From: Clostridia bacterium
Lineage (GTDB): Bacteria; Bacillota; Clostridia; Oscillospirales; CAG-272
Direction: 5' to 3'
Assembly (NCBI GenBank): GCA_017501545.1
Contig: JAFVWS010000044.1
Coordinates: forward strand, 10,240 to 74,239
DNA length: 64,000 nt
Position numbers and translations under genes: made by a program. Below the pieces are notes generated by a model, which saw nothing but the letters and a program-made list of their open reading frames with translations, was not told the DNA's origin and did no database searches. This document shows, piece by piece, positions 31,186-33,352 of this stretch (position 1 is the stretch's first letter; every line of letters begins with the position of its first letter).

Positions 31186-31200
31186 ATTAGTGAAATAAAA

Positions 31201-31223
31201 AGGGGAGGCATATTGCCTCCCCT
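31201..31223 (-). terminator. Intrinsic terminator following the displaced kinase 3' end
   Basis: AGGGGAGGCA-tat-TGCCTCCCCT with a TTTTATTT tail on the minus strand. Confidence 0.8.
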
Positions 31224-31228
31224 ATAAA

Positions 31229-31390
31229 TTATTTATCATTTTCATCCCTTTGGGTTTTAAACTCAAACCAGAAGGTAAAGCCCTTGCCAAGCTCGCTGGA
31301 AACTCCAAAGCGTGAGCCGTGAAGGAGAAGAATGTTTTTTACAATGGATAGACCCAGCCCAGTGCCAAGCACAGCACGCTTATGCACCTT
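31229..31390 (-). pseudogene. Orphan 3' fragment of the histidine kinase gene
   Basis: 31257-31390 matches 31950-32083 ungapped at 126/134. Encodes KVHKRAVLG...KGFTFWFEFKTQRDENDK* with its own stop. Confidence 0.85.
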
Positions 31391-31787
31391 TATAGCCTCC
31401 ATCTGTCGAGGGAGGTGTCAACGGAGTTGACGGAGGGAGAGTGCTTTTAATTAATGCGTCAATATATATGCAAACGCCGTTGAAATTTTTATCAATTAAA
31501 TAGTTTGGAATCCTAATAACGGATAAATCCAATTCTTCAAGATCTTTTGTTCTTTCAGCGTCTTTAAGTAATTGCATTTCAGTATAATGTCCACTTCCGT
31601 CAAGCTCAATAACAAGCTTGGCCTTTGCGCAGTAAAAGTCTACAATATAATTGCCTAAAGGTTTTTGTCTTTGAAATCGAATAGGGTAACTTCTTAAAAA
31701 ATCATACCAAAGATGCTTTTCGTGACGTGTCATATTTTTACGGAGCTCTTTGGCAAGCGGAATGTTTGCTTTATTATAAGTCTTCAT
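31380..31787 (-). CDS. DUF559 (Vsr-like) endonuclease
   Basis: AKELRKNMT..E..LW..LR...F.RQ.P.G.YIVDFYC..AKLVIELDGSGH signature. The RBS (GAGGGAG) lies within the upstream repeat. Confidence 0.9.
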   Translation of the reverse strand: MKTYNKANIPLAKELRKNMTRHEKHLWYDFLRSYPIRFQRQKPLGNYIVDFYCAKAKLVIELDGSGHYTEMQLLKDAERTKDLEELDLSVIRIPNYLIDKNFNGVCIYIDALIKSTLPPSTPLTPPSTDGGYKGA

Positions 31788-31920
31788 AATCTCTCCCTCA
31801 GTTTCACAGGTGAAACAGCTCCCTCGTCAGAGGGAGCCTTAATTATTCCTCAATCTTAAACTCAAACCGAACAGCCTCCATCTGTCGAGGGAGGTGTCAA
31901 CGGAGTTGACGGAGGGAGAG
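31395..31920. mobile_element. REP-bounded DUF559 cassette (three 47-48 bp repeats)
   Basis: 31395-31441 and 31874-31920 are identical; 31791-31838 is an inverted, diverged, structure-preserving copy. Mobility is inferred, not shown. Confidence 0.65.
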
Positions 31921-31924
31921 AAAA

Positions 31925-33352
31925 TCAAATCTTTTCAGTTCTCTCAATCTTAAACTCAAACCAGAAGGTAGAGCCCTTGCCAAGCTCACTGGAAACTCCA
32001 AAGCGTGAGCCGTGAAGGAGCAGAATGTTTTTTACAATAGAAAGTCCAAGACCAGTGCCAAGCACAGCACGCTTATGCACCTTGTCAACCTTGTAGTATC
32101 TATCCCAAATAAGAGGCAAATCCTCCTCGCTAATGCCCTCGCCAGTGTCGATGACTGACACCCTTACAACGTCGTCTAAAAGCTCCTCACGCACGGTTAT
32201 AAGCTTGTCATCGCCAGTATAGTTAATGGCATTATTAATTAGGTTGTAAATCACCTGCAAAAGCCTTGTTTCGTCGGCGTTTACAAATATTTCCTCGCCT
32301 GCTTTTTCAAATACAATGTTATATTCCTTATGCTCAAGTAGCTTTTCGTACCTTTTTACCGTGTCAGAAATTGCCCTTGTAAGAGAAATTGTCTTAGGCT
32401 CAATGGTATGTGCGCCGGATTGTAGCTTGGAAACGGTGAGCAGGTCGTTTACAAGGGAGTTTAGCCTTGCAGTTTCATCAATGATAACCTGCATATTTTC
32501 AGGAGTATTTTCCTCGGGGAAGTCACGCATAACCTCACTATATCCAGAAATTAGTGTAAGAGGCGTGCGCAAATCGTGCGAGATATTTGCAATAAGCTCC
32601 TTTTGCGTTGTATCAAGCTTTTTAAGCTCGGAAACGGCTGTGTTTAGTGCAGAGGCAAGCTCCTCAATTTCGCGTGGACCCTTCTCGTCAAATTTAACGT
32701 CGTAGTCGTAAAGGGAAAGTGACTTTGCCTTTTTGCCCATTGAAGAAATTGGGGCAGAGATGTTTCTTGCGATAACAAATGACATAAGCACCGAAATTAA
32801 AATGGCAAAAATTAGCATAAATATAAGCAGAGTGTTAAATGCCATTTTTGTAATTGGCGGTGGGTTAATGTTTGCATTTAAGACAATTAGGTGCGTTGGT
32901 GCACCCTCATCACCACTGCCAGCTAACATAACGTAAATTAGCTCGCTATCAAGCTTGGTTTTATAGGTTAAGTCCTCACTTTCCATAGCAAGGGCGCGCC
33001 ATTCGTTTAAGCGTGCGTCGTTTTCAAAATATCCGTCCGAAACAATAGATGGGTCGCTGATAAATATGTCCTTAGGCACCCCGTCTATATCAAAAACCGC
33101 AATAGCAATATCGTGTCTATACTCGTTTCCTAAGCCCTCAAGAAAGCCTTCAAGGTCATCTCTTTCAACATTGTGAGAAATTTCCTTGGCAAGCCTCTCA
33201 GATGAGGACGTCTTTACAATCTCGTAAACTGAGCGTAAAAGAAGTGATTCAAACGCCCAAATAAACACAATCAAAACAAGGCAAAGAGCAAGCATTGATA
33301 TAAAAATGCGAGTACGAATAGACGGACGGCGATTATCGTTTCTTTTTATCAT
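31925..33352 (-). CDS. HAMP-domain sensor histidine kinase
   Basis: ANISHDLRTPLT, NLINNAINYT, DTGEGI and GTGLGLSIVK; two TM helices. Confidence 0.95.
   Translation of the reverse strand: MIKRNDNRRPSIRTRIFISMLALCLVLIVFIWAFESLLLRSVYEIVKTSSSERLAKEISHNVERDDLEGFLEGLGNEYRHDIAIAVFDIDGVPKDIFISDPSIVSDGYFENDARLNEWRALAMESEDLTYKTKLDSELIYVMLAGSGDEGAPTHLIVLNANINPPPITKMAFNTLLIFMLIFAILISVLMSFVIARNISAPISSMGKKAKSLSLYDYDVKFDEKGPREIEELASALNTAVSELKKLDTTQKELIANISHDLRTPLTLISGYSEVMRDFPEENTPENMQVIIDETARLNSLVNDLLTVSKLQSGAHTIEPKTISLTRAISDTVKRYEKLLEHKEYNIVFEKAGEEIFVNADETRLLQVIYNLINNAINYTGDDKLITVREELLDDVVRVSVIDTGEGISEEDLPLIWDRYYKVDKVHKRAVLGTGLGLSIVKNILLLHGSRFGVSSELGKGSTFWFEFKIERTEKI

Follow-up and report, generated by a model that had tools for sequence, protein, structure and literature searches.

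Why should a short piece of DNA lying between two inverted hairpin repeats carry an exact copy of the end of the neighbouring gene? The question is raised by a locus in a 64,000-nucleotide stretch (the window) from a Clostridia bacterium of the CAG-272 group of Oscillospirales (GenBank assembly GCA_017501545.1, contig JAFVWS010000044.1, positions 10,240 to 74,239), whose genome we call G000. On the minus strand a histidine kinase gene is followed, in this order, by TTTT, a repeat without a gene (A2), the spacer in question, an inverted repeat (B), a small gene for a nuclease of the DUF559 family, another repeat (A1), the bases ATA, a displaced second copy of the kinase 3' end (K1, corresponding to block K2 of the working gene) and a terminator (Table 1). 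B, the nuclease gene and A1 make up what we call the cassette. The spacer is, in our judgement, probably the former 3' terminus of the kinase (..FEFKIEE-stop, TTAA; stop codons are written in this way throughout), trapped between the outer ends of two successively arrived elements, and this degree of confidence refers to the whole account taken jointly, that is, to the stranded terminus, the two events and the mechanism proposed below.

There are exactly two occurrences of the 20-mer CTCAATCTTAAACTCAAACC in the window, one inside the spacer (31849-31868) and one at the kinase 3' end (31943-31962), and in none of 100 shuffles did such a match arise by chance, even with up to three mismatches allowed. 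The copy had already been noticed in an earlier interpretation made from the letters alone (the sequence-only reading), and it is exact. On the minus strand the spacer reads GTTC-GGTTTGAGTTTAAGATTGAG-GAA-TAA-TTAA, in frame FEFKIEE-stop, which bears out the further observation that it encodes a third kinase C-terminus. The sizes given there hold to within one base, the repeat being 48 rather than 47 nt long and the spacer 34 nt (31839-31872) rather than 35. Repeat A is 100% identical at 31394-31441 (A1) and 31873-31920 (A2), and both displaced pieces of the kinase do follow it on the minus strand, as had been said: the 20-mer comes after A2 and a piece of 152 nt (K1, 31239-31390) after A1. Over 134 nt K1 is 94% identical to 31950-32083, and it retains positions 67-110 of the HATPase_c domain (Pfam). 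Repeat B shares the two-hairpin plan of A, with a CTCTCCCTC block, an inner hairpin and an outer hairpin, and its inner stem differs from that of A in a compensated manner.

How did an old gene end come to lie between two repeats? Relatives of the organism preserve earlier states of the same locus. In G010 and G001 the kinase ends with ..FEFKIEKKQDNE-stop (or a longer tail; that of G010 is IEKKQDNE-stop), followed by 4 nt and the left repeat, and there is no extra repeat, so that these genomes represent a one-insertion state. Since the kinase stop codon, the 4 nt and the left repeat are uninterrupted in relatives lacking the extra repeat, the spacer represents an earlier terminus of the kinase, and since A2 and B face each other by their outer ends, the DNA between them is chromosomal and not part of an element. 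G004 carries the same composite as G000, with an extra A copy that is identical to its own A1 and four positions off the G000 repeat; its spacer, AGAAATTGAGAAGCAAACAAAAAAGTAACAAGAA, is an old kinase terminus (..EIEKQTKK-stop) that the present kinase matches over only 8-9 nt. A different solo repeat stands at the same kinase end in G016, G015 and G019, preceded by new tails (IEKAQDI-stop, VEKQ-stop and IEKSQDA-stop) and followed by the displaced native end of 27-47 nt (..FWFEFKIEK-stop) and then the terminator. From this comparison the spacer appears to be the terminus that the kinase had after the cassette arrived, severed by the arrival of a unit consisting of a new kinase end, its tail, TTTT and A2.

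Natural-looking tails precede the solo repeats in G016, G015, G019 and G004, and both IEKAQDI-stop and IEKSQDA-stop resemble the IEKKQDNE-stop of G010. Because tail codons that resemble the natural kinase tails of other lineages cannot be created by fill-in, import is favoured over local copying, and by the same logic the 22 nt before A2 (..RTEKI-stop and TTTT) represent a donor kinase tail. An alternative origin of these 22 nt, as a remnant of the 3' end of the nuclease gene, was rejected, as their analogues in G016 and G019 resemble natural kinase tails. Two arrivals have therefore followed one another at the kinase end, and the copies they left are of different allelic origin. The sequence-only reading had considered two successive insertions, each leaving a target duplication of variable length; the succession is supported by the one- and two-insertion states of the relatives, while the copies are not classical target-site duplications.

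Table 1. Features of the kinase locus, in window coordinates, and arrays of adjoining sequence at other repeat loci of G000, by contig
Feature	Position	Strand	Description or basis
Histidine kinase gene, working copy	31925..33352	-	Open reading frame list; Pfam HAMP, HisKA, HATPase_c; C-terminus FEFKIERTEKI-stop
K2, kinase block repeated downstream as K1	31950..32083	-	134 nt, 94% identical to 31257-31390
New kinase tail ..IERTEKI-stop (stop 31925-31927) and TTTT, directly before A2	31921..31949	-	Outside HATPase_c domain
A2, extra gene-less right-end repeat, two hairpins	31873..31920	-	48/48 identical to A1
Spacer: GTTC, 20-mer (31849-31868), GAA TAA (31843-31848), TTAA	31839..31872	-	Sequence, relatives
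B, left-end repeat of cassette	31791..31838	-	Inverted partner of A
DUF559 nuclease gene, ATG 31785-31787	31442..31787	-	Pfam; open frame continues through A1 to 31380
A1, right-end repeat of cassette, encodes ..LPPSTPLTPPSTDGG tail of nuclease open reading frame	31394..31441	-	Open reading frame list, repeat comparison
Junction ATA(AAG), then K1, displaced kinase 3' end	31239..31393	-	K1 ends FEFKTQRDENDK-stop, stop 31229-31231
Intrinsic terminator of kinase gene (hairpin and T run)	31194..31230	-	Inverted repeat I8; terminator-like Rfam matches
Array	C7:20175-20360		Three copies of 93-nt gene end
Array	C7:21888-22178		Four copies, 36 nt
Array	C34:131315-131651		Five copies, about 50 nt
Copy pair	C18:43605		Two copies, single repeat between
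Array	C18:121838-122108		Three copies
Array	C11		93-nt intergenic segment
Copy pair	C42		Two copies, single repeat between

The pattern of divergence between working and displaced copies bears on where they evolved. Over ten cassette loci the copies show 34 differences, of which 29 (85%; binomial p = 6e-10) affect third codon positions and 28 are synonymous, while about 60% non-synonymous changes would be expected, by our own estimate, had an in-place copy drifted freely. K2 and K1 differ at eight positions, seven of them synonymous, and the two copies at C18:43605 share 75% DNA identity with only one residue different. Such near-synonymous-only divergence means that both copies evolved inside working genes, so that either one copy was imported or the working allele was later replaced. 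We read K2 as the likely imported donor allele and K1 as the likely displaced original end, a reading drawn from sequence comparison. The sequence at 31194-31230 is the original terminator of the kinase gene, displaced together with K1; Rfam gives only terminator-like chance matches at the locus. Five of the K2-K1 differences occupy consecutive third codon positions at 32039-32051, in codons of the conserved G-L-G-L-S ATPase motif, and an allele of the kinase from an empty site (on a contig of metagenome run X13, described below) has its own cluster of differences at 32054-32063; this is a local hot spot of synonymous diversity. The idea that the five wobble differences shield K2 from the nuclease was dropped, as the copies in G010 are near-identical and the X13 allele has its own cluster nearby.

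Metagenome contigs show the same site both with and without the cassette. On a contig of run X13 the site is empty: the kinase is joined directly to a K1-type tail and the terminator, the 35 nt across the joint are identical to 31223-31257, and five of the eight K1-specific bases are present. The X13 allele differs from G000 at 10 of 134 positions in the repeated block and at 4 of 173 just upstream, although these are small numbers. The site is occupied in X1, X5, X6, X9, X10-X12 and X20; X12 includes a relative in which a kinase tail IEKQVENDK-stop runs straight into the left repeat, and in X16 the copy beside A1 is the X13-type allele with another tail, IQRKEDI-stop. An exact scan of metagenome contigs for the hypothetical junction that would have preceded A2 gave no match. 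In runs X6, X10 and X11 we also observed a joint from 31924 to 31783, where A is joined to B through 20 nt (GATACAAACTATATAAAGAA) and the first nuclease codons; these contigs represent an internally deleted, gene-less derivative of the same cassette, from some organism in the samples.

The right-hand joints lie 0-6 nt past the outer end of the repeat and share a few bases with the target. The G000 joint, ..ATAAAG/GTGCAT against GACAAG/GTGCAT in the kinase, shares AAG, as does L039 (ATAAAG/CGCTCC against TTTAAG/CGCTCC in its target), the G010 joint is at the neighbouring AAG/GTTGAC, and the joints of G019 and G015 share GGCT with the target. At a second target gene, common to loci L025, L026 and L039, the displaced copy begins with 9-17 nt of the type found in another species, and L026 and L039 have, ahead of the left repeat, a TCC that only L025 has natively. 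Judging from these alignments, the mosaic flanks are probably the signature of homologous-recombination spread between species. Insertion of the elements into terminator loops was considered and rejected, as both element ends have complete hairpins.

What sequence of steps would produce such a layout? We propose that in a first event the cassette (B, DUF559 gene, A1) arrived with a donor kinase end, and that this moved the native end K1 downstream together with its terminator. In a second event a gene-less unit, consisting of a donor kinase end, the tail IERTEKI-stop, TTTT and A2, would have arrived, and what remained of the terminus set by the first event would be its last 20 (to 24) nt and the stop codon. 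In the donor lineage the element would have been situated a few nucleotides past the stop codon. Each founding transfer would be a one-sided homologous capture, with a crossover in the conserved coding block resolving the left side. The outer end of the element would be a defined DNA end, possibly produced when the DUF559 nuclease acts on the hairpin repeat, and a microhomology of 3-4 nt would serve to join it to a more upstream site of the recipient gene, the 3' end of which would survive as a displaced fossil. Since the joint is always at the outer border of the repeat, this border is suggested to be a made DNA end, with the DUF559 nuclease as the obvious candidate for making it. Later, ordinary recombination on both sides may spread the structure between strains and species in a homing-like manner, the fossil copy providing the homology on the right, and arrays may grow by repetition or unequal crossing-over. 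By analogy with homing endonucleases, an alternative or additional role of the nuclease could be to cut empty alleles. The layout of the locus, the two successive arrivals, the earlier states in relatives, the empty site, the nearly synonymous-only divergence, the mosaic flanks and the microhomologies are shown; the sequence of events at the level of DNA strands, as well as any part played by the nuclease, is what we infer.

Could the same layout have been produced by elements that simply moved in place? Two true transpositions, in which widely and variably staggered nicks (8-134 nt) were filled in and the differences arose later, would agree with the sharply defined ends of the element and with the clean, nearly identical flank copies at some loci (67 nt at 98.5% in G001, 59 nt at 100% in L035 and 111 nt at 99% in L039). 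However, fill-in cannot create the kinase-like tail codons found between the repeated block and the repeat, free drift is at odds with the third-position bias described above, and Pfam reveals no transposase. Classical transposons duplicate a fixed length of recipient sequence, whereas the copies here span 8-134 nt, vary in length even at one target and have donor-like tails, and we therefore consider this explanation improbable. Traffic of the Campbell type, where recombination between the two target copies releases a circle of gene end and element that re-integrates into any homologous gene end by a single RecA crossover, would regenerate the duplication and build arrays with no need for the nuclease. 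Arrays of the form (gene end-repeat)n-gene end do exist, the copies are mosaic, and one contig (of run X14) has the kinase block between two A repeats, as a circle would; but this contig can equally be a path through two identical copies and we do not count it as a circle. No circle or excision joint was found in the four runs that hold the strain, copies of 8-27 nt are too short for RecA crossovers, and the origin of the first copy at a new gene is left unexplained, so that to this model, too, we assign only a small chance.

A more exotic possibility, raised in the sequence-only reading, is that A2, the spacer and B form a functional repeat-spacer-repeat unit, the spacer either recording the target or guiding the nuclease to it. 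The exact 20-nt match to the adjoining kinase end invites this idea, and the unit folds as a single long hairpin (z = -6.5) directly upstream of the nuclease gene. We gathered neighbouring repeat pairs in G000 and in 110 loci and scored spacer-flank matches against shuffled controls. Among inverted pairs with facing outer ends the spacer matches its flank above controls in two of nine distinct pairs (that of G000 and an array member, L099), and seven have no such match, so that the proposal that spacers record nearby sequence fails. Same-orientation neighbours have a flank match in 12 of 19 cases; matches are thus commoner there and go with target duplication, not with a repeat-spacer-repeat design. 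In relatives the spacer sequence is contiguous with the kinase, the protein is a 115-residue Vsr-fold enzyme in which Pfam, NCBIfam and PADLOC detect only DUF559 or restriction-endonuclease-like matches and no RNA-guided domain (RuvC, HNH or PIWI), and no Rfam family matches the A2-spacer-B unit; the single metatranscriptome run found, from another habitat, contained 0.05 of the words. A guide or recorder is thus very improbable in our view, and 'recording' is true here only in the trivial sense that old gene ends are retained as by-products. Even less credible, to the point of being negligible, is an assembly artefact, with the kinase ends of two strains wrongly joined in tandem by way of the repeat. 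In favour of such an error are the origin of the genome as a metagenome bin, the allele-like appearance of K1 and K2 and the length of repeat A, which at 48 nt exceeds common k-mers. Yet k-mer overlap cannot produce the ATA junction, and across each of the junctions K1-TAT-A1, A1..B-spacer-A2 and A2-K2 single contigs read through, with 0-1 differences, in independent runs of several studies. Every junction of the locus recurs, again with 0-1 differences, among the contigs of four independent gut metagenome runs, which shows that the locus is not an assembly artefact.

The stranded-terminus account, with an imported K2, nevertheless faces several observations that pull the other way. Replacement of the working allele by ordinary recombination at a later time would give the same synonymous pattern. 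Comparison with 11 species, each of which is equally distant from K1 and from K2, yielded no donor of K2, and between K1 and the X13 allele there are 8 differences in 134 sites. A1 and A2 are 100% identical within G000 and within G004, yet there are four differences between the genomes, which requires gene conversion or recent copying. Displaced copies are absent from about half of the cassette loci in the genus and present at only about 19 of 72 in the wider set, and where the two copies are 99% identical (G010, L039, L026) an in-place duplication explains them equally well. Finally, the nuclease may be irrelevant to the movement.

What kind of enzyme does the cassette encode? The nuclease has 115 residues in a single domain, assigned to DUF559 by Pfam at 1e-26; the DUF559 structure PDB 3HRL is matched at 1.8e-12 with the single sequence and at 4.5e-20 with a profile. 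A profile of 12 nuclease sequences also matches 3R3P, the nuclease domain of I-Bth0305I (Vsr fold), with E = 1.3e-3, so that these profile matches to 3R3P and 3HRL relate the fold to that of a proven homing endonuclease. D50, E61, D63 and H67, within ..IELDGSGH.., are invariant in the 12 homologues. Judged by these matches, the enzyme is most probably Vsr-like, with a PD-(D/E)XK fold. The inner part of B, GAGGGAGAG, contains a GGAGGGA block that we read as the ribosome-binding site of the nuclease ATG, and a nearly constant shell of this kind is found in relatives: a left repeat with the GGAGGGA ribosome-binding site and a right repeat encoding the last residues of the open reading frame. In three other species the nuclease is 73-80% identical and lies directly after the orthologous kinase, while the kinases of genus relatives are only 59-64% identical.

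The family is much larger than this locus. Genus relatives have 0-7 copies of the nuclease gene per genome, and at further loci in metagenome-assembled genomes of gut Clostridia both repeats are present in 47 of 80 cases and at least one in 68 of 80. G000 has about 40 repeat copies in 24 loci compared to two nuclease genes, so that the inverted hairpin repeats flanking the gene also exist in gene-less form. The inner hairpin has a stem of at least 5 bp in 145 of 153 unique repeats versus 31 of 153 shuffled controls; with 44 different stems in use, it is evidently kept by covariation. Flank copies of 30-134 nt accompany 14 of 30 cassette loci in the genus, and in G000 at least eight other repeat loci have copies of adjoining sequence, mostly as same-orientation arrays of the type (gene end-repeat)n (Table 1). 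A full-text literature search brought up no account of hairpin-flanked DUF559 cassettes or of the gene ends displaced beside them, and the family appears to be undescribed in the searchable literature.

Several further observations concern the family at large. The second DUF559 gene of G000 (C21:38528-39244, outside the window) is a 56% identical paralogue at a contig end; a tandem triplication of the left repeat with about 24 nt of its own 5' end lies upstream, and a tandem triplication of 30 nt of its own 3' end with the right repeat lies downstream. Here the element's own gene ends are displaced. At C20:60316-60580 (outside the window) five repeat copies stand in tandem, 7-8 nt apart (TTAAATAC), and the piece between repeats can thus be very short. 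The repeat ends come in two flavours (31394-31838 compared with L044-L121), ..CAGTC..AGCTCCC..GGGAGCC and ..CCGTC..ACCTCCC..GGGAGGC; most cassettes have the former at the 3' end of the gene, and in the kinase-associated clade the gene is reversed within the same shell. Just past the kinase stop codon in L006 (genome G006) and L005 (G016), a terminator hairpin, GGCTCCCTCTGACGAGGGAGC with a T run, equals the outer hairpin of the G000 B repeat, although the kinases are only ~60% identical; it may be the remnant of a lost cassette now acting as a terminator. A contig start outside the window (C30:1-330) has a copy of rpsI truncated at its 5' end, and beside it a solo A-like repeat whose outer hairpin contains a 30-nt insert; the assembly break inside rpsI suggests another displaced gene piece.

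How do these elements compare with known systems? Among described processes, homology-facilitated illegitimate recombination (PMC3240628) comes closest, together with the displacement arrays of Vibrio cholerae type VI secretion effector-immunity genes (PMC5361080) and of rhs C-terminal ends (PMC2935791). There, as here, homology on one side lies in a conserved coding core and microhomology on the other, the incoming piece replaces the 3' end of a gene, and older ends pile up downstream in order as orphans. The ordered arrays, the synonymous-only divergence and the AAG and GGCT joints are consistent, at the level of sequence, with displacement of this type. In contrast to those arrays, the pieces here measure 8-150 nt and bring no cargo or immunity gene along, what travels is a defined hairpin repeat, accompanied by the nuclease gene or not, and the illegitimate joint is always 0-6 nt from the outer end of the repeat.

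Free-standing homing endonuclease genes, such as that of the Vsr-fold EDxHD enzyme I-Bth0305I (Taylor et al., 2011; PMC3239194), provide another parallel. In common with them, this is a selfish nuclease gene that occupies a conserved site in a conserved host gene of some strains and is missing from others, is found at the same site across species and is more conserved than its host gene; flanking tracts may be co-transferred, and it is the I-Bth0305I domain that the nuclease profile matches. The differences are that this nuclease, of ~115 residues, lacks extra DNA-binding domains and has E-x-D-G-x-x-H instead of the EDxHD motif, that its gene resides in no intron or intein and is bracketed by two-hairpin inverted repeats with many gene-less copies, and that the end of the recipient gene appears, in this comparison of sequences, to be left behind. 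REP/REPIN sequences with their RAYT genes likewise combine a single small gene between inverted hairpin repeats with many gene-less copies just after genes, but the enzyme here is of the PD-(D/E)XK (Vsr-like) and not of the Y1 (HUH) transposase type, and the repeats consist of two hairpins with purine and pyrimidine blocks, in copies tied to displaced gene ends. The intrastrand-triplex repeats known as BoxC, PIT or TMECO (Holder et al., 2015; PMC4666352) resemble ours in the succession of a pyrimidine block, a loop, a purine block and a second purine block (CCTCCC..GGGAGG..GGAGGGAGAG), and are also intergenic, often in inverted pairs of two subtypes, and linked to local rearrangement. The present repeats do not conform to the TMECO consensus CCCTCNCCC N3-6 GGGNGAGGG N3 GGGNGAGGG: their second loop is a covarying hairpin of 14-20 nt instead of 3 nt, their blocks differ from CCCTCNCCC and GGGNGAGGG, and they occur in Clostridia, not Proteobacteria.

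We rate the system as a joining of known kinds, namely a selfish nuclease gene of the homing type, repeats resembling REP sequences, and one-sided recombination that displaces gene ends. It is a tentative proposal, one that we doubt somewhat more than we believe, that hairpin-ended DUF559 cassettes and their gene-less repeats form an undescribed sort of nuclease-driven mobile DNA, in which the nuclease sets the outer ends, one-sided homologous capture leads conserved genes of different lineages to exchange their 3' ends systematically, and ordered arrays of fossil alleles are left behind.

The spacer itself is an ordinary by-product, and the family behind it is the interesting part. DUF559 proteins are very common, and the family is not known to have an assigned function. 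Here the nuclease gene is the sole cargo of a family of repeats; this family varies between strains, has settled at one and the same gene in several species, and has left visible, datable scars with its arrivals. Should the nuclease prove to make the ends of the element or to cut empty sites, this would give the DUF559 family a testable role. Short 'orphan' gene ends beside hairpin repeats are best read as fossils, being neither pseudogene noise nor CRISPR-like spacers. The proposed mechanism, if true, would account for the exchange of conserved gene ends among gut Clostridia and would make the fossil-allele arrays a natural, readable record of past gene ends.

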